This document shows, piece after piece, positions 27,614-57,521 of a stretch of 64,000 nucleotides of DNA. The position numbers and the translations under genes are program-made. Below the pieces are notes generated by a model. It did not search any database. It worked only from the letters and a program-made list of their open reading frames with translations, and was not told the DNA's origin. The stretch lies in the NCBI RefSeq assembly GCF_016717175.1, contig NZ_JADKFZ010000004.1; one strand, 5' to 3'. Numbering within the stretch: the stretch's first letter is position 1; each line of letters begins with the position of its first letter. The stretch comes from Nannocystis sp. (GTDB lineage: Bacteria; Myxococcota_A; Polyangia; Nannocystales; Nannocystaceae).

Positions 27614-27749
27614 GCGTGCGCGACGAGGACGATCGTCCGGGTCGACATCGTGTACGACGCGCCCTAGGCGTGCGCGACGAGGACGATCGTCCGGGTCGAC
27701 ATCGTGTACAACGCGCCCTAGGCGTGCGCGACGAGGCAGCGACCCATCA
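27573..27749. repeat. 3.3 x 54-bp tandem duplication of the gene junction
   Basis: The unit gtcgacatcgtgtacgacgcgccctaggcgtgcgcgacgaggacgatcgtccgg carries the upstream gene's last codons (VDIVYDAP-TAG) and a GTG that is in frame with the kinase. Copies start at 27588, 27642 and 27696, with a partial copy before them. Confidence 0.9.
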
Positions 27750-30700
27750 TGACGAGTTCCCGCGGGGCTTCGGGAAGTTCGTACTGCTCCGCGAGATGGC
27801 CCGCGGGGGGATGGGCGCGCTGTACCTCGCGGCGGCTGGCGAGCATGGCGGGCTCGAGAAGCTGTGCGTGGTCAAGACCTTGCTCGCCGACGCCGATGCT
27901 GATGAGGACGGCGCGCTCGGTCGCCGCTTCTTCGATGAGGCTCGTGTGGTCGTGCGCCTGAATCACGCCAACCTCGTACAGGTGTTCGATGTCGGGGCCG
28001 TGGAGGGTCAGCTCTACCTGGCGATGGAGCTGGTGGACGGGAAGGACCTGCGGGCGGTGTGGAACCGCTGCGCACAGCTGCAGCGGCGGATCCCGGTCGA
28101 CATCGCGGTGTTCGTGGTCCGCGAGCTGCTCCGCGGGCTGGCGTATGTGCACGACGCGATGGGGCTCGGCTTGGTCCATCGTGACATCTCACCGCCGAAC
28201 ATCCTCGTCGGCTACCGCGGCGAGGTGAAGCTGACGGACTTCGGTCTGGCGAAGAGCGTGCTGCGCTCGGAGATCACGAGCCCGGGGCGGGTGCTCGGCC
28301 GCTTCAACTACCTCTCGCCGGAGCAGGCCCGGGGTCAGGCGGTCGACCGGCGCACCGACATTTATGCGGCGGGGATCGTGCTCTGGGAATTACTCACGGG
28401 GCGGCAGTTGTTCTCCGCGAGCGTGGCGAGCCACGGCGCGACGCTCGCGGCCGCCCGTGACCCGTTCGTGCGGGCGCCCTCAGAGCTGGTCCCTGAGATA
28501 CCGGATGGCCTCGACTCGATCGTGTTGCGGGCCCTCGGGACCGAGCGAGAGCAGCGCTATCAGACGGCGGACCGCTTCCGTGCGAGCCTTTCGGAGATCC
28601 TCGCGCGAAATTATCCGAGCTGTGATACGGACCGGATTGGCGGGTTTATGCGCGACATCTTCGCGCGAGACCACAAATTTGAGACTCACGACTACGCGAG
28701 CTACGTTCGCGAAGATTTCTCCAGGGTCCGGGAGCAAGGTCGGGGGCAGGATGCCGTCAGCCTTTCGGACTCCATGGACATCCCACGCCGGGGCCGACGG
28801 GCAGCAAGCGAGAGCAGGATGGCGGATATCGAGGAAATGGGCCTTCTCAGCGGCCACACAGCGAAGCCCACGGCGTCGACCCGGGAGGAGGCAGAACAGC
28901 GCTGGGGTACCGTCGTCGCCGGTCGTTACCGGGTCGAGGACCTGCAGGTCTTCGACGGCATGGGCGCGCTGTATCGGGCCCGCGACACCGAGCGTGGGGT
29001 TCCGTGTGCGCTGCGCGTGCTGCCGGAGATCTATGCCCGCGAACCGGAGGTGATGGCCCGCTTCATGGCCGACGCCCAGGCGGCGCAGGAGCTCAAGCAC
29101 CCGAACATCGCGCAGGTGTTCGACATCGGCAAGCTCGACGACGGGGCCGTGTACGCGGTGACCGAGCTGCTCGATGGCCAGAGCCTGGCGACGATCATCC
29201 AGGAGGAAGGTCGCATCTCGCCAGGGCGGGCCGTCCACGTGGCCAGCCAGGTGTGCCGCGCGCTGGGCACGGCGCACGAGTCGGGGATCATCCACCGCGA
29301 CTTCAAGCCCAGCAACATCGTGCTGGTGGCGCAGGAGGGCGACCTCGACTTCGTGAAGGTCGTCGACTTCGGCATCTGCTCGCACGTCGACAGCGAGCCG
29401 TCGACGACCACCTCACAGCAGGAGTTGATCATCGGCTCGCCCGATTACATGGCCCCCGAGCAGGCCGCTGGCGCCGAGGCCAACCCGGCGTGTGACATCT
29501 ACGCGCTCGGGGCGGTGCTGTTCGAGACGCTGAGCGGGCGTCTGCCGTACAAGGGGCGCAACGCGATCGACGTGCTGATCCAGAAGGGTGCACGCGACGC
29601 GCCCCGGGTCACGGATGTGGCGCCGGACGTGCCCGAGGGGCTCGCCGACGTGATCGCGGCCTGCCTGTCGCGGCGACCCGAGGAGCGGCCGTCGTCGATG
29701 CGGGTGCTCGAGGTTGAGCTGCTGCGGGCGCTCGACAGCAAGGCGCCGCGACCGGTGAAGAGCGCCGTCGCGGCGGCGCTGGCTGGCGCCGGGGTGCCCC
29801 GTTTGGACACGTCGGAGCGATCGGCGAACCTGCCGTTACCGCCTCCGCCGGAGAGCGCGTCGAGCTCGTCGATGCGGGCGCCGGTCAGCAACGAGGCGTC
29901 GGCCTCGGGGCCACGCACGGGCCCGGCGAGCGGCCCCAGCGGGCTGACGCCGGTGACGGCGATGCGAGAGGAGCGTCGGGAGCCATCGTCAGTGCAGCGG
30001 CCGCCTGAGCCGCTGGTCGAGCGACCGACCCAGCAGGACGTCGTCGAGCCGGTGCAGCAGAGCTCGAACGGTTGGTTGTGGCTGGTGGCCGGCGGCACGC
30101 TGATCATCGCGGCGGTGCTGCTGTACCCGCAGCTGTTCGGCGGCGGTCCGGTGCCGCCAAAGCCCGACGCCAAGGGTGGCGAGGTCGTGGTGAAGACCAG
30201 CGCCGATGTGGCCGAGCCCGATGTGCCCGACACGGTCGAGCCGGAGCCGCCGGTCCCACCACCGGCACCGACGCACGACCCGATGGTGATCGTGACCCGC
30301 GCCGAGCTCGCGCTGGGGGAGGGCCGGCTGACTGCGCCGGCGGGTAACAACCTCTCGGAGTACCTGCAGCAGCTGGCCACACTCGACGCGGGCAACGAGG
30401 CGATCGCTCGCCTTCGCGGCAAGGCGGTCGAGGGCCTGCTGGCGAAGGGCAGCAAGGAGCTGGCCGACAAGCACGCGCACGAGGCCGCGGCCTTCCTGCG
30501 CGAGCTGTTCGTGCTGGCCCCGGACAACAAGGACGCGATCGCACCGTTCACGGAGGCCGTGCTCACCGAGAGCAGGATCTTGCGCCACATGAAGGCGTGG
30601 GACGAGATCCTGCCGCTGATCGAGGAGGTCACGAAGGTTAACCCCAAGAGCTTCGACGCGCAGATGCTCCGCGGGCAGACGCTCGCGGGCCTCGGTCGCT

Positions 30701-30807
30701 GGACCGACGCCGTCGAGGCCTACAAGGCCGCGACCGCGCTGCGCAAGAAGGACAAGCCCGCCAAGGCGGCGCTCGCCGAGGCGAAGAAGAAGGCGGCGGG
30801 AAAGTAG
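27724..30807 (+). CDS. Ser/Thr protein kinase with two tandem kinase domains, a TM helix and a C-terminal TPR-like domain
   Basis: Domain 1 has FGKFVLLREMARGGMGALY, HRDISPPNIL, DFGLAK and SPEQ. Domain 2 has GMGALYRARD, HRDFKPSNIV, DFGI and APEQ. Then NGWLWLVAGGTLIIAAVLLY (TM). Start is likely GTG 27724 in the third repeat copy, but GTG 27616 or 27670 are also possible. Confidence 0.8.
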   Translation: MRDEAATHHDEFPRGFGKFVLLREMARGGMGALYLAAAGEHGGLEKLCVVKTLLADADADEDGALGRRFFDEARVVVRLNHANLVQVFDVGAVEGQLYLAMELVDGKDLRAVWNRCAQLQRRIPVDIAVFVVRELLRGLAYVHDAMGLGLVHRDISPPNILVGYRGEVKLTDFGLAKSVLRSEITSPGRVLGRFNYLSPEQARGQAVDRRTDIYAAGIVLWELLTGRQLFSASVASHGATLAAARDPFVRAPSELVPEIPDGLDSIVLRALGTEREQRYQTADRFRASLSEILARNYPSCDTDRIGGFMRDIFARDHKFETHDYASYVREDFSRVREQGRGQDAVSLSDSMDIPRRGRRAASESRMADIEEMGLLSGHTAKPTASTREEAEQRWGTVVAGRYRVEDLQVFDGMGALYRARDTERGVPCALRVLPEIYAREPEVMARFMADAQAAQELKHPNIAQVFDIGKLDDGAVYAVTELLDGQSLATIIQEEGRISPGRAVHVASQVCRALGTAHESGIIHRDFKPSNIVLVAQEGDLDFVKVVDFGICSHVDSEPSTTTSQQELIIGSPDYMAPEQAAGAEANPACDIYALGAVLFETLSGRLPYKGRNAIDVLIQKGARDAPRVTDVAPDVPEGLADVIAACLSRRPEERPSSMRVLEVELLRALDSKAPRPVKSAVAAALAGAGVPRLDTSERSANLPLPPPPESASSSSMRAPVSNEASASGPRTGPASGPSGLTPVTAMREERREPSSVQRPPEPLVERPTQQDVVEPVQQSSNGWLWLVAGGTLIIAAVLLYPQLFGGGPVPPKPDAKGGEVVVKTSADVAEPDVPDTVEPEPPVPPPAPTHDPMVIVTRAELALGEGRLTAPAGNNLSEYLQQLATLDAGNEAIARLRGKAVEGLLAKGSKELADKHAHEAAAFLRELFVLAPDNKDAIAPFTEAVLTESRILRHMKAWDEILPLIEEVTKVNPKSFDAQMLRGQTLAGLGRWTDAVEAYKAATALRKKDKPAKAALAEAKKKAAGK

Positions 30808-30945
30808 CCTGCAGCGCCGCGCGACGAGATGCTCGTCGCGGCGGCGTGGCTGCGCCGGAGCGAGCTCGGGTTGAGCTGGCTGAGCTGCGCTGGCTCAGCG
30901 GGCTCTTGCTGGCTGAGCTGGCTCGGGCTGTCCCGAGGGACAGGT

Positions 30946-31161
30946 CTACTCGTCGCGCTCCATCTTCTTGCGGAGGCTGAGCGGGCGCATGTCGGTCCAG
31001 ACCTCCTTGATGTAGTCGAGGCACTCGGCCTTCGGGCCCTGCTTGCCGGCCTCCTTCCAGCCGAGCGGCAGCTCGCGCTCGGAGGGCCAGATCGAGTACT
31101 GCTCCTCGTGGTTCACGACGACCTTGTAGATCGTGTCGTCTTCGCGGTCTTCGCTGGACAT
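30946..31161 (-). CDS. MbtH-like protein
   Basis: [53 protein letters not shown] matches the MbtH signature (N.E.Q.S.WP…GW…CL.Y…WTD.RP.SLR). It lies 17 bp after the antiporter operon's last gene. Confidence 0.8.
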
Positions 31162-31177
31162 GCTGCGCTCCGATCGT

Positions 31178-32971
31178 TCAGGGCACGAAGCCGAGGACGA
31201 GGTAGACGAAGAGGATGCCGGTGATGGTGATCATCGCGCCGCCGAGGCCCCACTCGCGAAACCATGACTCCTCGGCGGGCGGGGAGTAGACGAGGCGCTT
31301 GAGGTCGTCGGGGAGGCTGCCGATGAAGCCGTCGCGGACCTCACCGAAGGCGCGCATCAGCGGGGCGAGCAGGTGCTTCCAGGTCGCGGGCGCGAGGGTG
31401 CGATAGAACCAGTCGCTGTCGAGGGTGATCGTCAGCGTGCGCTTGAGGACCGGGAGCAGCACGAAGAAGGCGAGGCCGGAGAACAGCAGGAGCTGCAGCT
31501 GGCTGATCACGTGGGCGCCGGTGTAGGGCACGTAGAGCTCGACGTCGGCCGGGGCCGGGAAGGGGAGGATCGCGTAGAGCGGCTGGTACACGCCGGGGAC
31601 GCCGAGCGCGACGCAGAGGGCGGCGAAGAAGATCATCGCGGCGCGCATGTTCCACGGCGGGTCGGGCGGGCGCAGGCCGGAGTCCTTCTGGAAGAAGACG
31701 AACCACGGGAACTTGATGCCGGCGTGCAGGAACACGCCGGCCGAGGCGGCGGTGAGCACGAACCAGGCCAGCGCGAGGTGCTGGTCGGCCGCGGCCTGGT
31801 TGATCATCGACTTGGTGACGAAGCCGGAGGTCAGCGGGAAGGACGAGATGGCGAGGGCGCCGACGATGCCGCAGACCATGGTGATCGGCATCGAGTGGTA
31901 GAGGCCGCCGAGGTCGGTGCACTTGCGCTTGCCGGTCATGTACAGCACGCTGCCGGCCGACATCAGGAGGAGCGCCTTGTAGATGATGTGGGCGAAGGCG
32001 TGGGCGGCGGCGCCGTTCAGGGCCATGGCGGTGCCGATGCCGATGCCGCAGACCATGAAGCCGACCTGGTTGACGATCGAGTAGGCGAGGATCCGCCGCA
32101 TGTCGTTTTCCAGGATCGCGTAGACGATGCCGTAGACGGCCATAGCGAGGCCGACGTAGATGAGCAGCTCGGTGCCGGCGAACAGCAGCATCAAGACGTA
32201 GACGGCGGTCTTGGTGGTGAAGGCGGACAGGAAGACGGTGCCGCTCTCGGAGGCCTCGGGGTAGGCGTCGGCCAGCCAGGCGCCGAGCGGCGGGGCGGCG
32301 GCGTTGACGAGGACGCCGAGCAGGATGAGCCAGGCGGCGACGTCACCTGGCCCACAGGACAGGGCGTCAAAGCCGGCGGGGCCGAAGGCGAAGTGGGAGA
32401 GGGCGAGCGGGTCGGGTACGCCCTGAGACTGGAGGGCGAAGACGTGGGCGAGGATGCCGGCCATCAGGACGACGCCGCCGACGAGGTGGACCAGGGCGTA
32501 GCGCATGCCGGCGCGGGCGGAGCCCTCGGTGCCGGCGCTCCAGACGACGGCGGTGGAGCCGACGGCCATCAGCTCCCAGAACATGAAGAGGGTGAGGATG
32601 TCGCCGGCGAAGGTGACGCAGATGGCGCTGCCGGCGTAGACGAAGGCGGCGGGCAGCTCGACGCGCCAGCGCTTGCCGCGTTCGCTGGCGAGGCCGGTGA
32701 TCGGGTGGGCGAAGAGGGCCCCGCCGAAGGCCATCAGCGCGAAGATGGTGGCGAAGACGCGGGTCGCGGGCTGCCAGGAGAGGACCGTCAGCTGCTGGTC
32801 CATGAAGGGCAGGGTGACGCTGAGGTCGCCCGGGAGGGCCCAGATGTAGCCGAGGGTGAGCAGCGGCAGCAGCAGGGCGACGGCCGGCGCGGCGCGGCGA
32901 AGCAGCGGGAGCAGCAGGCCGCCGAGGATGAGGATGACGCCCGGGGGCGGGAGGCCGACGGATTCAGTCAT
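31178..32971 (-). CDS. NuoL/MrpA-like proton-conducting membrane subunit (597 aa)
   Basis: Has 14 or more TM helices of the complex-I antiporter-like family. Start ATG 32971 overlaps the preceding stop (TCAGTCAT). Confidence 0.8.
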
Positions 32972-33197
32972 CGTAGTAGGTGTCCCTTCGCTTGAGCAGG
33001 AGGCCGACGACGAACTTGGAGACGAGGACCATGCCGGCGCACACGGCGAAGCCGTACCAGGCGTGGAACGCGAAGCCGCCGTCGACGCCGAAGTGCGGGT
33101 GGTGCTCGACGGCCGCGTCGGCGGCGACGAGCACGGCGAGCACCACGAGCGACACGACCCACAGCATGCGGATGGTGGCAGGATCTTCGAGCTTCAC
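32964..33197 (-). CDS. small two-TM membrane protein embedded in the antiporter operon
   Basis: A GTG 33197 start gives VKLEDPATIRMLWVVSLVVLAVLV…[17 protein letters not shown] (77 aa). GTGA overlaps the upstream stop, and its TGA is 2 nt before the next ATG. Confidence 0.4.
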   Translation of the reverse strand: MKLEDPATIRMLWVVSLVVLAVLVAADAAVEHHPHFGVDGGFAFHAWYGFAVCAGMVLVSKFVVGLLLKRRDTYYDD

Positions 33198-34777
33198 GGC
33201 AGCAGGCCTTTCCGGAGCTGAGTGGCGAGGTCGATGGCGAGGTCGGAGTAGAAGAAGAAGGCGATGGTCGCGGCGGCGGTGCAGCACAGCGCGAGGACCA
33301 TCGGCCAGGGCGCCTCGCCGTGCTCACCGTGGTGGCCGTGGGCGTGGCTGTGGTCGTCCTCGTCGCCGAACAGGCCGTCGGTCGAGCTGGCGTGGCGGCC
33401 CGGGTTGGCGGCGCGGGGCGAGGGGCGGAAGAAGGCGCGGTAGATGATCGGGAGGAAGTAGCCGGCGTTGAGCAGGGTGCTGAGGATGATGACGCCGACG
33501 ACGAAGGCGTACTCGGTCTCCCAGGCGGCGGTCAGCAGGTACCACTTGCTGATGAAGCCGGCGGTCGGCGGGAGGCCGATCATCGACAGGGCGCCGATCG
33601 TGAAGGCGCCCATGGTGAAGGGCATGCGCCGGCCGATGCCGTCGAGCTGGCTGACCTCGGTCTTGTGGGCGGCGGTGTAGATCGAGCCGGCGGCGAAGAA
33701 CAGGGTGATCTTGCCGAAGGCGTGGGCGGCGATGTGGAGGGCGGCCGCCATGATCGAGATCGGCGACAGCAGGGCCGCGGCGATGATGACGTAGGACAGC
33801 TGGCTGACCGTCGAGTAGGCGAGGCGGCGCTTGAGGTTGTCCTGGAACAGGGCGATGAAGGAGGCGATCAGGATGGTCGCGCCGGCGACGTAGATGAGCC
33901 AGCTGCCCTGGTGGTACTTGATGAGCGTGAGCGGGCCGAAGGTGTAGACGATCACCTTGACGACGGTGAAGACGCCGGCCTTGACGACGGCGACTGCGTG
34001 GAGCAGGGCGCTGACCGGCGTCGGCGCGACCATGGCGGCGGGCAGCCAGCGGTGCATCGGCATCAGCGCGGCCTTGCCGATGCCGTACATGTAGAGGAGG
34101 AACAGGGTGCCGAGGACGGGCGCCGAGAGCTCGCCGGAGGCCAGGGCCTTGGTGAACACGCCGCCTGGCTTGAAGGACAGGTCGTGGGTGTAGGCGTAGG
34201 TGGCGATGATGCCGGCGAGGAGGAAGCAGACGGAGGTGACGACGAGGATGCCGAGGTAGGTCCGGGCCGAGCGCAGCGCCTCCGCGGTGCCCTTGTGGGC
34301 GACCAGCGGGTAGGTCGTGAGGGTCAGCATCTCGTAGAAGACGAACAGGGTGAACAGGTTGCCGGCGAAGGCGAGGCCCATCACGCTGCTGATGGCGAGG
34401 GCGAAGCAGACGTAGAAGCGGGTCTGGTGCTTCTCCTGGTTGCCGCGCATGTAGCCGATCGAGTAGAGCGAGTTGAGGATCCACAGGGCGCTGGCGATGA
34501 GCGCGAAGATCATGCCGAGGGGCTCGACCTTGAGCTCGAGGAAGACGTTGGGGACGACCTCGATGAGGCGCAGCGGCGGGGCCTTGGCGTAGCCGGCCCA
34601 GAAGTCGGGGGCGAGCACGCGGGGGACGATGCCGATGACCGTGTAGAACAGGGCCGCGGCGGTGCCGAGGGTGATGCCCTCGCGGAGGTTGGCAAAGCGG
34701 CCGGCGAGGGCGATGAGGAGGGCGCCGATCAGGGGGATGTAGATGGCCAGCAGCGGCGGGGAGAGGTCGAAGGTCAC
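33194..34777 (-). CDS. MrpD/NuoM-like antiporter subunit (527 aa)
   Basis: GTG 34777 is preceded by GGAGGTG and overlaps the upstream stop (GTGA). Typical NuoM/MrpD helices (…LHAVAVVKAGVFTV…). The track ORF N-terminus is an artefact. Confidence 0.8.
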   Translation of the reverse strand: MTFDLSPPLLAIYIPLIGALLIALAGRFANLREGITLGTAAALFYTVIGIVPRVLAPDFWAGYAKAPPLRLIEVVPNVFLELKVEPLGMIFALIASALWILNSLYSIGYMRGNQEKHQTRFYVCFALAISSVMGLAFAGNLFTLFVFYEMLTLTTYPLVAHKGTAEALRSARTYLGILVVTSVCFLLAGIIATYAYTHDLSFKPGGVFTKALASGELSAPVLGTLFLLYMYGIGKAALMPMHRWLPAAMVAPTPVSALLHAVAVVKAGVFTVVKVIVYTFGPLTLIKYHQGSWLIYVAGATILIASFIALFQDNLKRRLAYSTVSQLSYVIIAAALLSPISIMAAALHIAAHAFGKITLFFAAGSIYTAAHKTEVSQLDGIGRRMPFTMGAFTIGALSMIGLPPTAGFISKWYLLTAAWETEYAFVVGVIILSTLLNAGYFLPIIYRAFFRPSPRAANPGRHASSTDGLFGDEDDHSHAHGHHGEHGEAPWPMVLALCCTAAATIAFFFYSDLAIDLATQLRKGLLP

Positions 34778-36285
34778 GGGGCACCTCCGAGCAGCGAGCG
34801 GGCGGCGGTCAGGGCGATGTGGCCGGTGAAGGTGGCGTTGATGCCGAAGTAGATGCTGGCGCCGATCAGGGTCCACATCGGGATGAGCATCATCAGCGGG
34901 GCCTCCTCGACCGGCGGGGTGCCGGGGTCGGGCTCCTGGAAGTAGGCGGCCTCGACGACGCGCCAGGTGTAGACGACGGCGAGCAGCGAGCCGATGAGGA
35001 CGACGGCGGCGAGCGGCCAGCCGCCGGGGCGCTCGAGGCAGCCCTGGACGAGGTACCACTTGCTGATGAAGCCGGCGGTGAGCGGGAAGCCGATCAGGCC
35101 GAGGCCGCCGACGGTGAAGGCGGCGAGGGTCAGCGGCATCTGTTTGCCGAGGCCGCGCACGCTGCGGATGTCGCAGCGGCCGGTGCGGTAGACGATGGCG
35201 CCGAGGGCCATAAACATGCCGCCCTTCATGACGGCGTGGTTGAAGATGTGGGCGACGGAGCCGGCGATGCCGTGGAGGTTGGCGAGGGCGAAGCCGAGGA
35301 CGATGTAGCCGAGCTGGCCGACGCTCGAGTAGGCCAGCATGCGCTTGAGGTTGGTCTGGCGGATCGCGGTGACGCCGGTGACGAGGATGCCGGCCGAGGC
35401 GCACAGCAGCAGGACCAGGCCGCTCGGCATCATGCCGAAGCTGAAGCCGACGCCGAAGATGGTGAAGAGGAAGCGGAAGGCCATGTACACGCCGACCTTG
35501 GTGGCGGTGGCGGCGAGCAGCGCGGACACGGCCGAGGGGGCGTAGGTGTAGGCCCGCGGCAGCCACATGTGCAGCGGGAACATGGCCATCTTCATGCCGA
35601 GGCCGGCGAGCAGGAAGGCGAAGGCGACCAGGACGGTGCGGCTCTCGAGGATGCCCGGCACGCTCATGAGGCGGTCGTGCATGTCCTGCATGTTGAGCGT
35701 GCCGGTGATCATCATCAGGTAGCCGATGCCCAGCAGGATGAAGCTGGCGCCGACGCTGCCGAGGATGAGGTACCGGAGGCTGGCCGTGAGGGCGCCGCGG
35801 TGCATGTCCTTGCCCATGGCGATCAGGGCGTAGACGGTGAGCGACGAGATCTCGAGGAGGACGTAGACGTTGAAGGCGTCGCCGGTGACGGTGATGCCGA
35901 GCAGGCCGGTGATGGCGAGGACCCAGACGGCGTAGAAGAAGTTGACGCGGTCGGCCGGTATCTCCTTCTCCACGCTGAGCTTGGCGTAGATGGTGGTGAT
36001 GAAGCCGACGCCGCCGACGATGAGGAGGATGAAGGCGTTGAGGGCGTCGACGCGGTACTCGATGCCCCACTGGCGCGGCCAGTTGCCGAGCTCGTAGCTG
36101 ACCATGCCGGTCTTGCTGGCGAGCACCTGCATCATCAGGCGGATGGTGAAGTAGAAGACGGTGCCGGTGAGGAAGGTGGCCCAGGCCCAGGGCTTCCAGC
36201 CGCGGCCGGTGGCGATGGTCAGGATGCCGCCGATCAGCGGGACGGTGACGATGAGGACGGGGAGGTGGGCTTGCACGTCAACCAT
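34774..36285 (-). CDS. MrpD/NuoN-like antiporter subunit (503 aa)
   Basis: Complex-I antiporter-like membrane protein. Overlaps mrpC by 8 nt. Confidence 0.8.
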   Translation of the reverse strand: MVDVQAHLPVLIVTVPLIGGILTIATGRGWKPWAWATFLTGTVFYFTIRLMMQVLASKTGMVSYELGNWPRQWGIEYRVDALNAFILLIVGGVGFITTIYAKLSVEKEIPADRVNFFYAVWVLAITGLLGITVTGDAFNVYVLLEISSLTVYALIAMGKDMHRGALTASLRYLILGSVGASFILLGIGYLMMITGTLNMQDMHDRLMSVPGILESRTVLVAFAFLLAGLGMKMAMFPLHMWLPRAYTYAPSAVSALLAATATKVGVYMAFRFLFTIFGVGFSFGMMPSGLVLLLCASAGILVTGVTAIRQTNLKRMLAYSSVGQLGYIVLGFALANLHGIAGSVAHIFNHAVMKGGMFMALGAIVYRTGRCDIRSVRGLGKQMPLTLAAFTVGGLGLIGFPLTAGFISKWYLVQGCLERPGGWPLAAVVLIGSLLAVVYTWRVVEAAYFQEPDPGTPPVEEAPLMMLIPMWTLIGASIYFGINATFTGHIALTAARSLLGGAP

Positions 36286-36757
36286 GGTGGTGGCCCCCGT
36301 GAGCGTGTTCGAGGCCGTGGCCCTCGGCGGCGGCCTCGTCGACGGCGTCGGCGGCGGCGCCGGCGTGGAACTCGGCGAGGCGGTCGGCGATGTCCATCGC
36401 CTCGATCTCGTCGGCCTCGATGGTGCCGTAGCGGCGCTTGATGTTGATGATGAGGGCGAGGGCGACGGCCAGCACCGACACCGAGACGACGATGGCCGTC
36501 AGGATGAGGACGTGCGGGAGCGGGTTGTCGTAGGGGCCCTGGAACTTCTGGGCGCCGTCCTGCACGGTGGTCCACACCGGGGCGGTGCCGCCGTCGATGA
36601 CGGCCATCGAGATGTAGTAGAGGAAGATGCCGGTCTGGAACAGGCCGAGGGCGATGGCCTGCTTGATGAGGTTCGGCTTGGCGATGACGCCGTAGAGCCC
36701 GATCATCATCAAGATGACGTAGATCCAGTAGTTGTAGATGCCGAGGACGCCGGTCAT
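36278..36757 (-). CDS. mrpC: MrpC/NuoK-like antiporter subunit
   Basis: MTGVLGIYNYWIYVILMMIGLYGV… has the NuoK-like three-helix fold. A His-rich tail follows. ATGA overlap with mnhB. Confidence 0.8.
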   Translation of the reverse strand: MTGVLGIYNYWIYVILMMIGLYGVIAKPNLIKQAIALGLFQTGIFLYYISMAVIDGGTAPVWTTVQDGAQKFQGPYDNPLPHVLILTAIVVSVSVLAVALALIINIKRRYGTIEADEIEAMDIADRLAEFHAGAAADAVDEAAAEGHGLEHAHGGHHHG

Positions 36758-37692
36758 CGTGACTCTTCCTCCGCGAGCTGGTTGAAGATGTTGAGCATGA
36801 CCATGCTGACGGTGATGCCGACGCCGTACTCGACGAGGGTCATGCCGAGCGCCTCGCCCTCGCCGGGGCTGACGGTGTCGAGCATCGAGTAGTCGAGGAA
36901 CTTGCCGCCGAGCAGGAGGCAGGCGGCGCCGGTGCCGGAGTAGACGAGGACGCCGAGGCCGGTGAGCATGTCGATGACGGGCGGCGGGAGCACGCGGTAG
37001 AGGGCGGGGCGGCCGAAGATCAGGGCGTAGAGGATGAAGGCGCAGGCGATGACGACGCCGCCCTGGAAGCCGCCGCCGGGGCCGAGCTCGCCGTGGGTGA
37101 TGACGTAGAGGCCGAACAGGAGGATGAAGGGGATCGACATCTTGCTGACGACGCGGAGGATCGTCTGGTCGAGCAGCGGGGCGGACTTCTGGGCCTGACC
37201 CTCGCGCCGCGGGCGACGCAGCAGCATGATCAGCGAGACGCCGGCGGTGAAGATGACGGTCGTCTCGAACATCGTGTCGTAGCCGCGGTAGGCCGCGAGC
37301 AGCGAGGTCACCGAGTTCGGGACGTGGCCGTTGAAGTCGTCGGGCGGGTGGAGGTGGTGGCCGGCCTCGGCGTGCTGAGGATGGCTTCCGAGGACCTCGG
37401 GGACGATGACGCCGTGCTGGGCGAGGACCGAGGTCTCGCGCCAGGCGGTGTCCTTGGGGTCGTCGGGGACGCTGGTGACGGCGCCGTTGAAGCTGCGGTA
37501 GGCGCGGGCATCGAAGCCCTCGGGGGGGGCCTGCTTGCCCTTGGTGCCGTTCACGAAGCCGACGGTCTGGGCCATCATCTCGGGGACGCGGAAGTGGTGG
37601 ATCGGGGCCTTCGGGTCGCCGAAGCGCGGCATGTCGAAGGTGCCGTAGATGAGGGCGGCGCCGGTGAGGGCGGTGACGATCAGCGGCCTTCC
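36754..37692 (-). CDS. mrpB: MnhB/MrpB-like antiporter subunit (the upstream portion continues in another frame)
   Basis: …GHHLHPPDD…SIPFILLFGLYVITHGELGPGGGFQGGVVIA… is the MnhB core. A protein-like sequence (LIVTALTGAALIYGTFD) extends upstream of the track's Met at 37632. Confidence 0.7.
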   Translation of the reverse strand, partial: GRPLIVTALTGAALIYGTFDMPRFGDPKAPIHHFRVPEMMAQTVGFVNGTKGKQAPPEGFDARAYRSFNGAVTSVPDDPKDTAWRETSVLAQHGVIVPEVLGSHPQHAEAGHHLHPPDDFNGHVPNSVTSLLAAYRGYDTMFETTVIFTAGVSLIMLLRRPRREGQAQKSAPLLDQTILRVVSKMSIPFILLFGLYVITHGELGPGGGFQGGVVIACAFILYALIFGRPALYRVLPPPVIDMLTGLGVLVYSGTGAACLLLGGKFLDYSMLDTVSPGEGEALGMTLVEYGVGITVSMVMLNIFNQLAEEESR

Positions 37693-37960
37693 AGTGGACG
37701 CGGACCTTGAGCGGCTTCTCCTCGCGGGCGGTGTGGACGAGGGTGCCGATCAGGAGGATCGTGGAGATGCCGCCGCCGACGGCCGCCTCGGTGAAGGCGA
37801 CGTCCATCGAGTGCATGTTGACCCACACGAGGGCCATCAGCAGCGAGTAGACGGAGGTCAACATCGCCGAGGTGTAGAGGTTGCGGACCTCGATGATGGC
37901 GATCGCGGTGACGGTGACGAGGAGGAGGAGGACGGTGTCGATGAGGACGACGCTGGTCAC
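37686..37960 (-). CDS. DUF4040/MbhD-like N-terminal domain, apparently joined to mnhB by a frameshift
   Basis: MTSVVLIDTVLLLLVTVTAIAIIEVRNLYTSAMLTS…GGISTILLIGTLVHTA. There is no in-frame stop; the frame degenerates into Arg/Pro artefact after about 37690. Confidence 0.5.
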
Positions 37961-38277
37961 GGCTCACCTCCCGGGTCGCTCCGGGTCCAGGGGCGCAGGT
38001 CGTGGAGGTGCGCGGCCTTGGTGATCGCGTGGGTGGCGGTCGGGGCGGCGATCATGAGGATCATGCCGACCGAGACGACCTTGATGCAGGTCAGGACGTC
38101 CGGGGTGACGAAGGCCAGGCCGATGAGGATCAGGAACTGACCGAGCGAGTCGGTTTTGCCGGAGGTGTGCAGCCGGGTGTAGAAGTCCGGCATGCGGAGG
38201 AGGCCCAGCGAGCCGGTCAGCGAGACCACGCAGCCGAGCGCGAGGAGGACGGTGGTGACGATCTCGTTCCAGTGCAT
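37957..38277 (-). CDS. mrpG: MrpG/MnhG antiporter subunit
   Basis: 106 aa with three TM helices. Has the MnhG-like TRLHTSGKTDSLG motif. Confidence 0.8.
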   Translation of the reverse strand: MHWNEIVTTVLLALGCVVSLTGSLGLLRMPDFYTRLHTSGKTDSLGQFLILIGLAFVTPDVLTCIKVVSVGMILMIAAPTATHAITKAAHLHDLRPWTRSDPGGEP

Positions 38278-38280
38278 GGG

Positions 38281-38544
38281 CTAGTCCAGGCGGCCCTTTT
38301 CGGCGAATTTGAGGATCGCGACCGTGGTGATGAAGGTGATCAACGCGTAGATGATCGCCATGTCGATGAACTCGGGTCGGCCGCTGATGTAGCCGAGCAG
38401 GGTGACGAACACGATCGTCTTGGTGCCGATCGCGTTGGTGGCGAGGATGACGTCGTAGACGGTGGGACCGACGACGGCGCGGATCAGGATGATGAGGAGG
38501 CCGATCAGCAGGGCGATGGCCGTGAAGAGGTAGACCCACTGCAC
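38281..38544 (-). CDS. mrpF: MrpF/MnhF antiporter subunit
   Basis: GTG 38544 start (VQWVYLFTAIALLIGLLI…). The track ORF's first 19 aa are an artefact. Confidence 0.7.
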   Translation of the reverse strand: MQWVYLFTAIALLIGLLIILIRAVVGPTVYDVILATNAIGTKTIVFVTLLGYISGRPEFIDMAIIYALITFITTVAILKFAEKGRLD

Positions 38545-38548
38545 GCGG

Positions 38549-39028
38549 TTAGTCCTCCAGCGTCTTGACGTGACGCTCCATGTCACCCTCTTTGAGGCCA
38601 CTCTCGGCGTCGGGCGTGAGGCAGTGGATGAGCATGCGGCGCTCCTCCACGATCACGGTCACGGTGCCGGGGGTGAGGGTGATCGAATTGGCGTAGGTGG
38701 TGGTGACGAAGGGGTGGCGGGTGCTGTAGTCGATCCAGGCCATGCGCGGGTCGATCGGCAGCGACGGCGACCAGATCCGCTTGAACACGTCCCAGTTGGA
38801 GAGGATCACCTGCCAGGTCAGGTAGGGCAGGTAGAGGAGGGCGCGCGGGAAGAAGCGCGCGGGCACGCCCTCGTCGTCGAGCACGCCCATGCGGCGGCTG
38901 ATCCACACGATGAAGGTGATGCAAAGCACGCCTGCGACGATCAGGAAGTTGTTGTGAAACTGCCCTGAGAGCAGCGCCCAAAACACGCCCAGAAGCAGGA
39001 ACAAGGACAAGGCGGGCATCATCGGCAA
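38549..39028 (-). CDS. mrpE: MrpE/MnhE antiporter subunit
   Basis: 159 aa with two N-terminal TM helices plus a C-terminal domain, as in MnhE. Confidence 0.75.
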   Translation of the reverse strand: MPMMPALSLFLLLGVFWALLSGQFHNNFLIVAGVLCITFIVWISRRMGVLDDEGVPARFFPRALLYLPYLTWQVILSNWDVFKRIWSPSLPIDPRMAWIDYSTRHPFVTTTYANSITLTPGTVTVIVEERRMLIHCLTPDAESGLKEGDMERHVKTLED

Positions 39029-39159
39029 GATGACGCTATCCGTTTGCGCCAGACGTGCCTATGGGAAAGATCGCGCTCGGCGGGTCGGTCGGGGCGCTTG
39101 ATCGGCGGGCCGCGGACCTGGTTCGGCACCCGGGGCATTGGTGGCATCATCCCCGGCCC

Positions 39160-41778: not shown

Positions 41779-44457
41779 ATGTCCCGAGGTTCAGGATGGG
41801 CGGCGCTGGTGGTGCTGACGCTGGCGAGCCCGGTGGTGGCTGCTCCGCCGCTGCTGCCAGGGGACGCGACCGGGGAGGGTCGCTCGCTGCTGCGGGACGT
41901 CGATCGCACGCGCACCAACGTGGCCGGGGAGGCGGACGCGGCGGCGGTGGTGGCCAATCCCGCGAACATGGGCTTCTTGAAGGCGATCGGCGGGGTGATC
42001 GAGGGGTCGTGGACGCGGGCGACAGCGCAGCGGCGCGGCAGCGGGGTCGGGGCCTTCGTGGCGCTGCCGCTGTCGCTCAAGCTGTTCGGGCGCAGCGTGG
42101 CGGAGAGTTTCTTGGCGCTCGGGATCGGGTACCAGCACCTGCGGCCGACCAGCGTGTGGTTCCCGCAGGGGCAGGTCGCGGCCTACGAGCTCGGCGGGCG
42201 GACTGCGGCGGATCTGCCGTATCACAAGGTGTCGCTGTCGGCGGCGCTGCCGTTGATGCGCTGGGCGCCGGGGCTGGCGCTCGGGCTGTCGTACAGTCGC
42301 TTGTGGTCGGCGCGTAACCTGGCGGCGGACGACCTGAACCAGGTCGATCTGGCGATCGGGTATCGGCCGCATCGGGTGGTCGCGGTGGGGCTGGTGGCGC
42401 GGGCGATCAACATGCCGCGGGCGCACGGGGACGCGACGATCGTGCCGTCGCTGCCGGCGGTGGTCCAGCCCTTCGAGCTCGACCCGGAGCTGGCGCTGCG
42501 ACCGATCCGCGGGACGCGGGCGCTCGAGCTGGCGGTGGGGGCGAGGATCGTGCCAGTGCAGCCGGTGCTGGACCCGCGTTACGCGTTGCCGGTGCTCTCG
42601 CCGCGGGTGCGCGTGGAGGCGGGCGGGCGCGGGGTCCGGGTGTTCGCGGAGGGCGAGCGCTACGCGAGCGCGACGGCGTCGGGGTCCGCCGCGGGGCTGC
42701 GCTTCATGACGGGGGTGGAGTTCGACCTGGCGAATGTCGGGCTGGCGGTGGCGCCTTCGTTCGGCAGCGGTGGCGGCGGCGCGGCGGGGGTGCAGGGCTT
42801 CGCGGGCAAGCTGCGGGTGTCGGCGGAGCGCTATGCGAGCCTGGCCGATCGGACAGGTGAGGCGCTGCGGGTGGACGTCGGCGCGTACGCGGGGGACCGC
42901 GGGATGTTCCGCCTGGTCGAGCTCATCGATCGCCTGGGCGAGCAGCACGGGGCGCTGCTGCTGCTCGAGGTCGAGACGCTGCGCCTGGGCTACGCGCAGA
43001 TCGAGGAGGTGCGCGAGGCGCTGCTGCGGCTGCGGGCGCGCGGCGGGCGGGTCGCGGTGTATCTGCGCGGCGGGGGGATCCGCGAGTACTTCCTGGCGAG
43101 CGCGGCGGAGCGGATCTTCAGCCACCCGAACTCGCGGCTGTCGATCGTCGGGCTGCGGGTGGAGGTGTTCTTCTTCGCCGATCTGCTGGCGAAGCTGGGG
43201 GCGCGGGCGGAGTTCGTGCGGGTGGCGGAGTACAAGTCGCGGCCGGAGCAGTTCGAGCTGCGCAGCAGCAGCGAGCCGTCGGCGACGCAGCGGCAGCTGC
43301 TGGTGACGGACACGTGGAATCACCTCGTACGCCTGATCGGGCGCGGACGCGGGAAGACGGAGAAGCAGGTGGCGGACTGGGTCGACGCGGCGCCGCACGC
43401 CCCGGAGGGGGCGCTCGGGGTGGGGCTGGTCGACGAGCTGGCGTACGTCGACGAGCTCGAGGCGAGGCTCGGGAGCTGGCTCGGGCGGCGGGTGAAGCTG
43501 AAGGCGCCGGGCAAGCGACCGGCGCACGCGGAGGCGTACGGGCCGGGGCCGCAGGTGGCGGTGCTGCACATCGAGGGGACGATGAGCGACGGGGTGAGCC
43601 TCGAGATCCCGATCGTCGGCAGCAAGCTGGCGGGGAGCGAGACGCTGGTGAAGCAGATCGACGCGCTGCGGGAGGATCGCCGGGTGAAGGCGGTGGTCGT
43701 GCGCATCGACAGCCCGGGCGGGTCAGTGGCGGCGGCCGACGCGATGACGCGGGCGCTCGAGCGGACCGCGAAGGTGAAGCCGGTCGTGATCTCGATGGGC
43801 AACGTGGCGGCGTCGGGCGGCTACTACGTGGCGACGGCGGGGCAGTACATCTTCAGCGACGCGCTGACGCGGACGGGGAGCATCGGGATCTTTCGGCCGA
43901 AGGTCGACCTGTCGGGCACGCTGAAGCTGTTCGGCGTCGGTGTCGATGAGATCAGCGTGGGGGCGAAGGCGGGGCTGTACTCGTGGTGGAAGCCGTACAC
44001 GCCGGAGGAGCGCGCGGCGGCCCAGAGCGGCATCGAGGTGCAGTACCAGATCTTCGTGCAGCGGGTCGCGCGGGCGCGGGCGATGGCGCCGGCGGAGGTC
44101 GACCGTGTGGCGCGCGGGCGGATCTGGAGCGGGGTGCGGGCGCAGGAGATCGGCCTCGTCGACGCGTACGGCGGCCTGCGCGAGGCGGTTTTGCACGCGC
44201 GGGCGCTGGCCAAGCTGGGGCCGACGGACGGCGAGCTGCGGCACTATCCGCGGCCGCCGAATCTGGTGGAGCAGATCGACGCGCTGTTCGGGCTGCGCCT
44301 GCCGTCGCCCCTGGGGCTGCGTGGCGGGTCCGTGGCTGGGGCGGAGCTCGTCGACGGCGCGCTGCTCTGGGTGCTGCGGCGTTTACCCGCGACCGTGTGG
44401 TGGATGTCGGGACCGGAGCCGCTGGCGATGGCGGAGGAGGTCGTCACCCTGGAGTAA
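41779..44457 (+). CDS. sppA: signal peptide peptidase SppA (S49, two-domain 67K type) with a ~350-aa N-terminal extension (paralog 1)
   Basis: Has RIDSPGGSVAAADAM and GNVAASGGYYVA (S49 Ser/Lys dyad regions). Signal peptide. The N-terminal domain is homologous to that of the second paralog. Confidence 0.8.
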   Translation: MSRGSGWAALVVLTLASPVVAAPPLLPGDATGEGRSLLRDVDRTRTNVAGEADAAAVVANPANMGFLKAIGGVIEGSWTRATAQRRGSGVGAFVALPLSLKLFGRSVAESFLALGIGYQHLRPTSVWFPQGQVAAYELGGRTAADLPYHKVSLSAALPLMRWAPGLALGLSYSRLWSARNLAADDLNQVDLAIGYRPHRVVAVGLVARAINMPRAHGDATIVPSLPAVVQPFELDPELALRPIRGTRALELAVGARIVPVQPVLDPRYALPVLSPRVRVEAGGRGVRVFAEGERYASATASGSAAGLRFMTGVEFDLANVGLAVAPSFGSGGGGAAGVQGFAGKLRVSAERYASLADRTGEALRVDVGAYAGDRGMFRLVELIDRLGEQHGALLLLEVETLRLGYAQIEEVREALLRLRARGGRVAVYLRGGGIREYFLASAAERIFSHPNSRLSIVGLRVEVFFFADLLAKLGARAEFVRVAEYKSRPEQFELRSSSEPSATQRQLLVTDTWNHLVRLIGRGRGKTEKQVADWVDAAPHAPEGALGVGLVDELAYVDELEARLGSWLGRRVKLKAPGKRPAHAEAYGPGPQVAVLHIEGTMSDGVSLEIPIVGSKLAGSETLVKQIDALREDRRVKAVVVRIDSPGGSVAAADAMTRALERTAKVKPVVISMGNVAASGGYYVATAGQYIFSDALTRTGSIGIFRPKVDLSGTLKLFGVGVDEISVGAKAGLYSWWKPYTPEERAAAQSGIEVQYQIFVQRVARARAMAPAEVDRVARGRIWSGVRAQEIGLVDAYGGLREAVLHARALAKLGPTDGELRHYPRPPNLVEQIDALFGLRLPSPLGLRGGSVAGAELVDGALLWVLRRLPATVWWMSGPEPLAMAEEVVTLE

Positions 44458-51732: not shown

Positions 51733-54371
51733 CTACTCCACCTCGACGAGGCCGGGGAGCAGGGCGAGGGCCTCGTCTTGCGGGAGGAACAGGAGCGCGA
51801 GCGGCAGGCGGGCGAGGGCGGCGGAGAGGGCGAGGGGGAGCTGTTGTTTGGCGTCGCGGCGCGACTGGAGGCGGGTGCGCAGGCCATCGTCGCCGGGCTG
51901 GGGGATGACTTGCTCGAGCAGGATGTCGACGAGGCGGCGCTGGCGGGGGAAGACGCGGAGGTCGAGCTCGATGCGGGCGGGGACGCCGGCCTTGCTGCGG
52001 ACGGCGGCGACGGCCTCGCGCAGGCCGCCGAATTCGTCGACCAGCTTGAGGTCCTTGGCGTCGGTGCCGGAGTAGACGTGGCCGCGGCCGAGCTCGTCGA
52101 CGCGCTCGATCGTCAGCTTGCGGCCCTCGGCGACGCGGCGGCGAAACAGGTCGTACACGCGGCGGATGGAGGCGTCCATGCGGGCGCGCTGGTCCTCGCT
52201 GAAGGGCTTGTAGAGGCTGGCGATGTCGGCGTTCTTGCCGCGGCTGAAGGTGCTGGTGGAGATGCCGAGCTTGGCGAGCAGGCCGGAGAGGTCGAAGTGC
52301 AGGCTGACGACGCCGATCGATCCGGTGATCGTGGTGGGCTGGGCGAAGATCTGGCGCGCGCCCATGGCGACGTAGTAGCCGCCGCTGGCGGCGACGTCGC
52401 CCATGGACACTACGATCGGAGGGCTCTTGCGCGGGGTCTTCTCGTGAGCCTCCTGTGTGCGCGAGACCTCGCGCCAGATCAGATCGGAGGCGAGGGCGGA
52501 GCCGCCGGGGCTGTTGACGCGCAGGACGATGCCCTTGCACATGGGGTCGGCGCGGAGGTTGCGGAGCTGCTGGACGAGGGTGTCGGCGCCGGCGAACTGG
52601 ATGTTGAGGAAGGGGATCGTTCGACTCTCGCCGTCGATGATGGTGCCCTCGACGAGCACGACGGCGGTGTAGGGGGCGTTGGCCCAGGTCGGGAGCTCGG
52701 GGTCGGTCTCGCCGAAGCTGGCGAACTTGACGCGGGCGCCGACGGCGGTGGAGATCGATTCGATGACCTCGTCGCGGTGGACGACCTTGTCGACCAGCTT
52801 GTGCGCGAGCGCCTGCTCGGGGCCGTGCGGGGCCTCGTCGATGAGGCCGCGGACCTGGTTCTGGGCGAGGCCGCGGGCCTGGGCGATGTCCTTGAGGATC
52901 TGGGCGTAGGTGTCGTCGAGGATCGCCTCGCGCTGCTGACGGTCGGGCTCGGAGGGGCCGCTGCGAGTGAAGCGCTCGTGGGCGCTCTTGTACTCGTTGA
53001 TGTAGAGGCCCTCGACGTTGACGCCGAGCTTCTCGAGGGCGCCCTTGAAGTAGAGGGTGGTGGCGGAGAGGCCGAAGGTGGCGAGCTCGCCGGCGGGGTG
53101 GATGTAGACCTGCTCGGCGACGCTGGCGAGGTAGTAGTCCTTGAGGTCGCCGCCCTCGAGGTAGGCGAAGACGTGGCCGCCGGCGTTGCGGACGCGGATG
53201 AGCGCGGCGCGGAGCTCCTGCAGGCTGGCCCAGCCGAGCTTGGCGGCGCGGGCGTCGACCAGGAGGATCGATCGCGGGCCGGCTTGCTCGGCGCGCGCGA
53301 GGCGTTCGAGCAGGCGGATGAGGGCGCGCTCGCCTTTCACTGCGGAGAGGTCGATGCGTTCGGCGTCGACCAGGCGCGGCCAGAAGACGCGGCCCTGGCG
53401 GGCGCTGCTGAAGCGGGCGGCGAGGCCGAAGCCGTCGACGCCGCCGGACAGGCCGGCGTGCATGCCGGCGCGGACGGTCATGAGGTCCCACGAGACGGCG
53501 AGGGCGACCGAGCCGCGCACGGCCTTGGCGTCGGCGACGACGGCGTAGGTGTTGCGGTCGAGGATGTGGGCCCGGACCTGCTCGACCTCGCCGGCGAGCT
53601 CGATGCCCTGGTAGCGGAAGGCGACGCGGCCGCGCGGGAGGACGCCGAGGTACTCGCCGAACTGCGGGGTGACGATGTCCGGGTTGCCGCGCCAGCGCGT
53701 GCGCACGCCGCCGGCGAGCTCGAGCATGCGGGTGCCGAGCGGGCGCAGGGCGAGCTCGCCGGTGACGGCGAACTCCTGCGGGAGGCTGCCCTCGGGTTGG
53801 AGGTCGGCGGGGCCGAGGCGGGCGACGGCGCCGACGGAGGCGTAGTTGCGGATGCGGACGAGGAGGCCGAGGTCGAGGTCGGGGCGGCGCAGGCTCTGGC
53901 CGCGGTCGAGCATCCAGTGCAGGCCGAGGCCGAGGGCGGCGACCTTGCCGTCGCCGGCGCTGAGGCCCCACGAGACCTTGGTGAAGTCGGGGTTCTGGGC
54001 GGCGCGGCTGTCGGTGTAGTTGCCGCCGAAGCTGGGGAGCACGCGCTGGACGCCGAGGCCGGTGGCGAAGCCGAGGCCGAGGTTGAGGCCGAGGAAGCCG
54101 CCGACGCCCGAGCCGCGTGTGAACGCGGAGGTCGATCGGTAGCCCATGATCACGGCGTCGAGGCCCTTCACGGCCGAGAGCAGGGCGGGGTTTAGCTCGA
54201 GGCTGCTGGCGTCGCCTTCGCCCGAGTAGTCGTGGATCGGGCGGTCGATGCCGTCGCTGGCGCCGCGGTCGACGGCGACCGGCTGCTGCGCGGCGGCGGG
54301 GGTGGTCAGCGTGGCGACGAGGGCGACGACGACGAGCGGGCCCCGTGGACCTGGCTTTGGGGACAGGGTGC

Positions 54372-54375
<4 letters not shown>
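51733..54375 (-). CDS. sppA: signal peptide peptidase SppA (S49, two-domain) with N-terminal extension (paralog 2)
   Basis: Has RVNSPGGSALASDLI and GDVAASGGYYVAMGA. Signal peptide LVVVALVATLTTPAAAQQ from ATG 54375. Stop is 3 nt before the ATPase ATG. Confidence 0.8.
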
Positions 54376-54823
<448 letters not shown>

Positions 54824-57347: not shown

Positions 57348-57367
57348 GCTAGCGGCGCAGCTCCGGG

Positions 57368-57520
57368 GTGGGGCGGGGTTGGACCTGGCTCTCGAGGCAG
57401 GTTCGGCTGGCCTCTGGGACAGGGCGCGTGGGACAGGTGGGGCGGGGCAGGACCTGGCTCTCGAGGCAGGTTCGGCTGGCCTCTGGGACAGGGCGTGTGG
57501 GACAGGTGGGGCGGGGCATG
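57368..57520. repeat. 2.2 x 62-bp tandem repeat immediately upstream of the BatA-like gene
   Basis: ggggcgggg(t/c)(t/a)ggacctggctctcgaggcaggttcggctggcctctgggacagggcg(c/t)gtgggacaggt occurs twice, followed by ggggcggggcatgg. Confidence 0.85.
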
Positions 57521-57521
57521 G

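Follow-up and report, generated by a model that had tools for sequence, protein, structure and literature searches.

A probable stand-alone group 3 Mrp antiporter operon and an adjoining, probably orphan MbtH gene in Nannocystis sp.

We analysed a 64,000-nucleotide stretch of DNA from Nannocystis sp. (hereafter the window, by which we mean the whole stretch), which has a GC content of about 70% and carries on its minus strand, at 30946-39028, a block of genes for an Mrp-type antiporter with a gene for an MbtH-like protein at its end. Taken together, the evidence makes it probable that two separate things have come to lie side by side here, a stand-alone group 3 Mrp (CPA3) cation/proton antiporter and a recently inserted orphan MbtH whose product serves nonribosomal peptide synthetases (NRPSs) encoded elsewhere. 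The operon itself is unremarkable and broadly conserved, a group 3 Mrp cation/proton antiporter of a kind already in the literature, and we regard its pairing with MbtH as a phylogenetically shallow accident that is uninformative on function.

Class and layout of the operon

A preliminary description of this DNA, made from the letters alone, had named a series of Mrp and Mbh domains, and Pfam recovered all of them in the claimed order on the minus strand: mrpE, mrpF and mrpG, a fused MbhD/MbhE/MnhB gene (A'B), mrpC, two genes for large antiporter-like subunits (D1 and D2), a small gene (s77), a third large antiporter-like subunit (D3) and then MbtH. Every Mrp subunit domain is represented (MrpA-N-like, MrpA-C/MbhD-E, MrpB, C, D, E, F and G, as judged from Pfam, NCBIfam and the fold match of D3), and G, A'B, C and D3 score above NCBIfam equivalog cutoffs. 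Group 3 Mrp operons do not contain a full-length mrpA and may hold several mrpD genes (PMC8415708). The block likewise has no full-length mrpA, an irregular gene order and one or more mrpD-like genes, the features by which the group is defined (PMC8415708, PMC5703873).

The arrangement with EFG first, which had been called Mbh-type, agrees with the stand-alone mrpEFGBB'CD operon of Pyrococcus furiosus, where MrpB corresponds to MbhD plus MbhE and MrpB' to MbhF (PMC8415708), and is a cyclic permutation of the cyanobacterial (Aphanothece) mrpCD1D2EFGAB, a Na+/H+ antiporter (PMC5703873). The operon shares with these two the absence of full-length mrpA, a MrpA C-terminal domain encoded with MrpB, the EFG-first order or its cyclic permutation, more than one MrpD-like gene, and a stand-alone existence with no redox module. 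It differs from them in that MbhD, MbhE and MnhB are fused in one 401-residue protein, that it has three antiporter-like subunits where they have one or two, that the last of the three bears an MrpA/NuoL-type C-terminal helix and anchor, and that there is an extra conserved subunit of 77 residues. The group 3 Mrp operon of Ca. Nitrospira alkalitolerans has two extra NuoM/NuoL-like genes after mrpD, which were interpreted as additional mrpA/D-like subunits; compared by this published description, they correspond to D2 and D3 (PMC7784846).

All seven subunit functions of the structurally characterised group 1 and 2 Mrp complexes (PDB 6Z16, 7QRU and 7D3U) are present as well, with the D3 model superposing best on MrpA and D1 matching MrpD. 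Here, however, MrpA is split: D3 is the counterpart of transmembrane helices (TM) 1-16 of MrpA and the A'B fusion that of TM17-21 plus MrpB, and D1 is the counterpart of MrpD. The NuoL-core subunit D2 and s77 are extras, and D3 appears to lack the TM7 Lys.

Using the 597-residue D3 as bait, we collected 80 loci from species-representative genomes and mapped them by tblastn. The complete order E-F-G-MbhD-MnhB-C-D1-D2-s77-D3 was found in 60 of them, most of the others being truncated contigs, and s77 lies directly before D3 in 79/80. The hosts come from at least five phyla and comprise Myxococcota, Alpha-, Beta- and Gammaproteobacteria, Acidithiobacillales, Magnetococcales, Gemmatimonadota and Planctomycetota. 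Three loci from Gammaproteobacteria (Legionellales; L034, L062 and L067, where L and a number denote a fetched contig bearing a relative of the operon) have C-D1-D2-s77-D3, with upstream E, F, G and A'B undetected at E<1e-4; L034 and L067 have extra, weakly similar D-like genes upstream instead. These may represent a variant architecture or simply divergent subunits.

Gene starts in the window were taken from the gene calls on near-identical contigs. On the minus strand, mrpE (38549..39022; Pfam MNHE, E 4.9e-30) encodes 157 residues from an ATG at 39022, the same length as in the near-identical contigs, and the mechanical open reading frame (ORF) starts at a TTG at 39028. It is followed by mrpF (38281..38544; GTG start, 87 residues as in relatives; MrpF_PhaF, E 4.9e-14) and mrpG (37957..38277; 106 residues; PhaG_MnhG_YufB, E 3.7e-24, and TIGR01300 above its cutoff). 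A'B (36754..37960) matches MbhD in its 5' part (E 5.4e-16) and MnhB (E 1.2e-28) with a weak MbhE in its 3' part, and is frameshifted in the window; the NuoK-like mrpC (36278..36757) encodes 159 residues (Oxidored_q2, E 5.3e-21; NF005624 above its cutoff). The statement that every junction overlaps needs correction, as E/F and F/G are separated by gaps of 4 and 3 nucleotides (nt). Overlaps of 4 nt are found at G/A'B, A'B/C (ATGA), D1/D2 and D2/s77, and of 8 nt at C/D1 and s77/D3. The block is flanked by a divergent MutS2 gene and by a convergent Ser/Thr kinase gene, in which Pfam found two Pkinase stretches, in agreement with the dual kinase domain described for it.

Antiporter-like subunits, s77 and a proposed mechanism

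D1 (34774..36285, minus strand; 503 residues; Proton_antipo_M, E 6.4e-63) is an MrpD/MbhH-type antiporter-like subunit. D2 (33194..34777, minus strand; 527 residues; Proton_antipo_M, E 8.7e-55, with a weak Proton_antipo_N) has a NuoL/NdhF-type core and is without the long C-terminal extension. D3 (31178..32971, minus strand; 597 residues; Proton_antipo_M; NCBIfam NF009310, 634.7 bits against a cutoff of 564) resembles MrpA-N, NuoL and MbsH', with TM15, a lateral-type helix and TM16. The three subunits were placed by their best matches among PDB sequences: MbsH (3.6e-59), MbhH and MrpD for D1, NuoL (3.3e-42) and NdhF for D2, and MbsH' (6u8y_X, 1.8e-28) and then Dietzia MrpA for D3. An AlphaFold model of D3 built with 59 sequences (predicted local distance difference test, pLDDT, 86; predicted template modelling score, pTM, 0.87) has a 14-helix core followed by a helix at 485-509, a 32-residue helix at 519-550 and a terminal helix at 576-595. 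Its top Foldseek matches are MrpA (7qru_A and 6z16_A), NdhF, HycC and NuoL, all aligned over the full length. The view that the 597-residue protein is NuoL-like is therefore borne out by TM15, the 32-residue helix and the final transmembrane helix of the model as well as by the whole-length fold match to MrpA, NdhF and NuoL.

The charged residues of these subunits were located by alignment of paralogues and orthologues, at positions that we assigned from sequence motifs and take to be equivalent. All four (TM5 Glu, TM7 Lys, TM8 Lys and TM12 Lys) occur in D1 and D2. In D3, and likewise in each of its 12 sampled orthologues, Asn takes the TM7 Lys position and the other three are kept, the position being drawn from the same motifs and not from a structure-based alignment. 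The TM7 region of D3 reads LINAGAPP...WLPDAYPEAS, and in the orthologues (L001-L077) a conserved WLPDAYPEAS replaces PxHxWLP. The TM7 Lys belongs to the Glu-Lys pair of NuoL, MrpA and MrpD and is regarded as central to proton transfer. We regard the Asn of D3, as read from these alignments, as a lead and not as a proven functional difference.

The small gene s77 (32964..33197, minus strand) encodes a 77-residue membrane protein with two helices and is conserved in this operon type. The preliminary description had placed a 77-residue ORF between the genes of 527 and 597 residues, and it is indeed there. The family has the consensus HWLxRPxTIRxLW, helix, HPHFGIDGxFGFxAWYGFxxC, helix, LKRPDTYYD, and a profile search finds at least 2779 protein clusters, of which the named ones are nearly all called 'hypothetical protein'; no Pfam domain occurs in these clusters among the matches listed. 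The protein itself has no match in Pfam or NCBIfam, and a profile of 61 sequences gave only chance matches (E>=0.38) to PDB chains, including those of Mrp, MBH, MBS and complex I. Its AlphaFold model is a helical hairpin (helices 6-29 and 40-68). The idea that s77 is a detached piece of NuoL/MrpA corresponding to TM15-16 was rejected, there being no sequence support for it (hhalign against the D3 profile, probability 0.1%). We conclude that s77 is a real, conserved gene and that it belongs to a large family tied to this operon type, which would merit a family definition; its place in the gene order suggests an assembly or interface subunit beside D2 and D3.

Analogy with the solved Mrp, MBH and MBS complexes leads us to the following ion paths. 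MrpE, MrpF, MrpG and the fused A'B protein would form the end of the complex at which cations, probably Na+, are translocated, and MrpC would bridge this end to the three antiporter-like subunits D1, D2 and D3, arranged in a row as proton channels. The s77 hairpin would be a further subunit, and the C-terminal helix of D3 would clamp the neighbouring subunit. Protons flowing inward through the D subunits, driven by the proton motive force (PMF), would then expel Na+ (or K+) at the other end. The third proton module would increase the H+/cation ratio and would permit cation export at low PMF or at high external pH or salt.

A bolder alternative is that the ten-gene block is a distinct, very widespread and uncharacterised subclass of Mrp, marked by three proton modules, s77 and a terminal subunit whose TM7 Lys has been replaced. 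We consider this a serious possibility, although we would not quite give it even chances; if it were true, the coupling ratio, the ion specificity or the assembly would be unlike those of the solved two-module Mrp. The unannotated s77 family, the Asn of D3 and the occurrence of the three-module block across at least five phyla are the leads that are left for annotation and structural biology.

The interrupted A'B gene

The reading of the fourth gene as a single 'DUF4040-mnhB' gene holds for its domains (MbhD and MnhB) but not for its frame, which is broken in the window by a frameshift that had been overlooked. The cause of the shift is a base inserted at 37680, accompanied by a C>T substitution at 37682 (37680..37682): the window has GCCGCTGATCGTC at the site and relatives have GCCGCCG-TCGTC, and in an alignment to seven metagenome contigs the window reads GGCCGCTGATCGTC and all the others GGCCGCCG-TCGTC. 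The MbhD frame, starting at 37960, runs without a stop to 36278, and the MnhB part lies in a different frame, which is open only from 37749 and stops at 36754. The extra base is private to the window, being missing by blastn in 12/12 independent contigs of 97.9-98.9% identity. An intact MbhD-MnhB protein of 401-403 residues is encoded in these 12 contigs and in every Nannocystis relative inspected, and both parts share one frame in all 61 genome loci that have the two. The intact fusion homologue of L098 scores above the NCBIfam cutoffs NF009161, NF009159 and NF009162.

Since the extra base is private to the window and the relatives are intact, we read the interruption of A'B as a probable assembly error; no contig from this strain (identity of 99.5% or more) could be retrieved across 37680, which leaves room for a real mutation. 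Most likely, the frameshift arose in assembly or else is a mutation private to this genome. The alternative of a genuine frameshift, with the operon decaying or inactive as a pseudogene locus in this strain, seems improbable to us. Such a view can point to the extra base and the adjacent substitution, which do stand in the assembled sequence with no same-strain contig to contradict them. Yet the remaining nine genes of the operon are intact and have high GC content at third codon positions (GC3), the dozen independent contigs at about 98-99% identity all carry the intact 401-residue gene, a look-up found the truncated 292-residue MnhB product on record in no assembly, and the pairing of an indel with a single-nucleotide change is, by our own reckoning, a common pattern of consensus error. 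There is a practical warning here, as the assembly holds at least one probable indel error within a coding region.

A second lone extra base was seen at about 39122, between MutS2 and mrpE, by comparison with the L098-L104 contigs; L186 and L187 have small indels at 39082-39097 instead. It may be another consensus error, and the site is non-coding if the start of MutS2 matches the 855-residue calls of relatives.

The MbtH gene and the surroundings of the operon

The MbtH-like gene (30946..31161, minus strand) encodes 71 residues and was rightly called bona fide; its product is 100% identical to an NCBI entry annotated as an MbtH family protein. A contig from sequencing run SRR11673999 matches the window at 99.5% identity over 29248-31440, the part that includes this gene. 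It matches PF03621 over the full profile (1-53 of 53; 84.8 bits against a cutoff of 27, E 2.7e-24), has the signature residues (PxGW, WTDMRP and three conserved Trp, from the translation and the PA2412 alignment), and finds its best solved-structure match in PA2412 of the pyoverdine cluster (E 1.4e-26, residues 6-69 aligned). The spacer after the D3 stop is 16 nt rather than the 17 bp given previously, and it contains a GGAG ribosome-binding site at a distance of six bases from the ATG. A scan for promoter and terminator consensus sequences around MbtH gave no sites, such scans being weak at 70% GC. Between MbtH and the convergent kinase gene lies a structured spacer of 138 nt (30808..30945, minus strand), which folds as RNA with -76.3 kcal/mol (z-score -5.3), carries the hairpin CTGTCCC-TCG-GGACAG and may act in termination.

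Significance had been implied for the adjacency of MbtH and the antiporter, with co-occurrence in other myxobacteria as the proposed check, and this check fails. Among loci in which the sequence runs on for more than 400 nt past D3, MbtH follows D3 in 0/76 from genomes and in 1/68 from metagenomes, the sole case being of the same lineage. All contigs in which it follows the operon have a D3 that matches that of the window at 94% identity or more. These are the contigs from wastewater and other metagenomes in which MbtH is 97-100% identical and the D3-to-kinase arrangement is as in the window, and L195 (D3 94% identical), which has an ABC ATPase and another gene before the kinase. MbtH is absent at this place from L196 (92%), L197 and L198 (87%), Nannocystis exedens (82%), L106 (81%) and the Nannocystaceae and Enhygromyxa genomes (57-72%; L001-L004, L027 and L064 show MutS2 upstream of the operon), as it is from other Nannocystis and Nannocystaceae metagenome-assembled genomes and from every non-myxobacterial locus. 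The synteny of MutS2, mrp and kinase is kept in most of the MbtH-less relatives at 92, 87, 82 and 81%.

A hairpin bears on the history of this adjacency. In L196, CTGTCC-TCGA-GGACAG lies a few bases past the D3 stop; alignment with L195, L196 and L197 shows that this hairpin comes after the stop codon of MbtH both in the window and in L195. Because MbtH is missing in relatives at 81-92% and the hairpin is displaced past the MbtH stop, we suggest a recent and narrow insertion: the simplest history, as judged by these alignments, would be that about 240 nt (the ribosome-binding site plus MbtH) entered between the D3 stop and the terminal hairpin of the operon in one young clade. The gap between D3 and the kinase is an insertion hotspot. 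At L195:6819-10303, MbtH (75 residues) adjoins D3, and an ABC-type ATPase and an HSDR_N-domain protein stand between MbtH and the kinase.

The claim that the 64 kb contain no NRPS stands, none of the plausible ORFs of the window having an AMP-binding, Condensation or PP-binding domain by Pfam. Among the MbtH genes outside the lineage that we inspected, the closest (at locus P0011, 86% identity) stands among unrelated genes, and the 10 kb around it contain no NRPS, so that similarity among MbtH proteins fails to trace the origin of this copy. A precedent comes from a passage in PMC7593251 (citing Esquilin-Lebron et al. 2018), according to which MXAN_3118, an MbtH-like protein of Myxococcus xanthus, belongs to no nonribosomal peptide gene cluster and has as interaction partners seven NRPSs whose genes lie at other places in the genome. 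By that account the two are alike in being stand-alone myxobacterial MbtH-like genes outside NRPS clusters, and unlike in that the present gene is embedded in an mrp transcription unit, at its 3' end; the likeness drawn here is one of setting. We suggest that MbtH stands outside the antiporter machine, that its product most likely works in trans, on the adenylation domains of NRPSs encoded at other sites, and that read-through from the mrp promoter probably accounts for its transcription. An MbtH gene beside an antiporter with no NRPS is then the orphan situation already documented in myxobacteria and raises no new question on MbtH function.

Several points weigh against the combined interpretation of a group 3 antiporter and an unconnected orphan MbtH. 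We infer the ion specificity and the stoichiometry of the ten-gene subtype by analogy; D3, having no canonical TM7 Lys, may form no standard proton channel, to go by its alignment; and if the A'B frameshift is real, the complex in this strain may be defective. No NRPS client for MbtH was seen, in a view limited to the 64 kb of the window. Finally, the short spacer with its good ribosome-binding site and the retention of MbtH beside D3 in two different downstream contexts (the window and L195) show that the gene has been retained in the transcription unit, so that there may be some regulatory coupling.

This last thought can be taken further, to an MbtH that assists the antiporter as a functional accessory, or whose expression is deliberately tied to it, whether through a non-NRPS role or through a coupling of NRPS activity to Na+/pH stress. 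Its same-strand position, the lack of a terminator-like element between D3 and MbtH, its persistence beside D3 despite the changed downstream genes of L195, and the location of the terminal hairpin of the operon past MbtH all fit such a proposal. We nevertheless think it very unlikely: at 76 genome and 67 metagenome loci the gene is missing behind the operon, among them congeneric Nannocystis whose D3 is 81-92% identical, the protein is fully canonical with PA2412 as its best solved-structure match, and for myxobacteria there is a documented case of an orphan MbtH protein serving distant NRPSs (in the same passage of PMC7593251). A related form, confined to this Nannocystis clade, in which the one nearby MbtH was captured into the mrp transcript and ties NRPS activation to Na+/pH stress, is the less likely of the two bolder readings given here.

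Across 78 loci, no flanking gene family is common to more than 11, so the block stands by itself, unaccompanied by a hydrogenase or Nuo-type redox module. According to a last alternative, these genes would encode the membrane arm of an Mbh/Mbs/complex-I-like respiratory enzyme, the soluble redox module being encoded elsewhere. This would account for the EFG-first order and MbhD/MbhE domains as in Mbh and Mbs, for MbsH and MbsH' as the best solved-structure matches of D1 and D3, and for three antiporter-like subunits reminiscent of NuoL, NuoM and NuoN, but we consider it highly improbable, given that neighbour result, the absence of NuoB/C/D/H/I-like or hydrogenase genes from the window ORFs by Pfam and of NuoH/MbhM-like or NuoB/D-like genes (the joints between redox module and membrane arm) in or beside the block, and the known stand-alone group 3 Mrp operons of this order (PMC8415708).

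A few other features of the window deserve mention. The convergent kinase is 1063 residues long in the mechanical ORF and 1028-1040 residues in relatives, and the 5' end of its ORF (27616-27740) holds a near-exact tandem duplication, RDEDDRPGRHRV[R/Q]RALGV, twice, which is probably an upstream direct repeat and non-coding. Rfam and tRNA scans of the whole window found nothing. Between 50001 and 52000 the GC content dips to 0.64, against 0.69-0.77 elsewhere, and this region contains no convincing ORF, tRNA or Rfam match. Two paralogous proteins of 892 and 1011 residues (41779-44457 and 51733-54768), each with two Peptidase_S49 (SppA-like) stretches, are encoded about 7 kb apart on opposite strands with an M16 peptidase between them. 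Two long ORFs with high GC3 belong to no Pfam family, one of 860 residues (54939-57521) and one of more than 411 residues (62764-63999), and the latter adjoins a FabH-like ketoacyl synthase III (KAS III) gene at the edge of the window.

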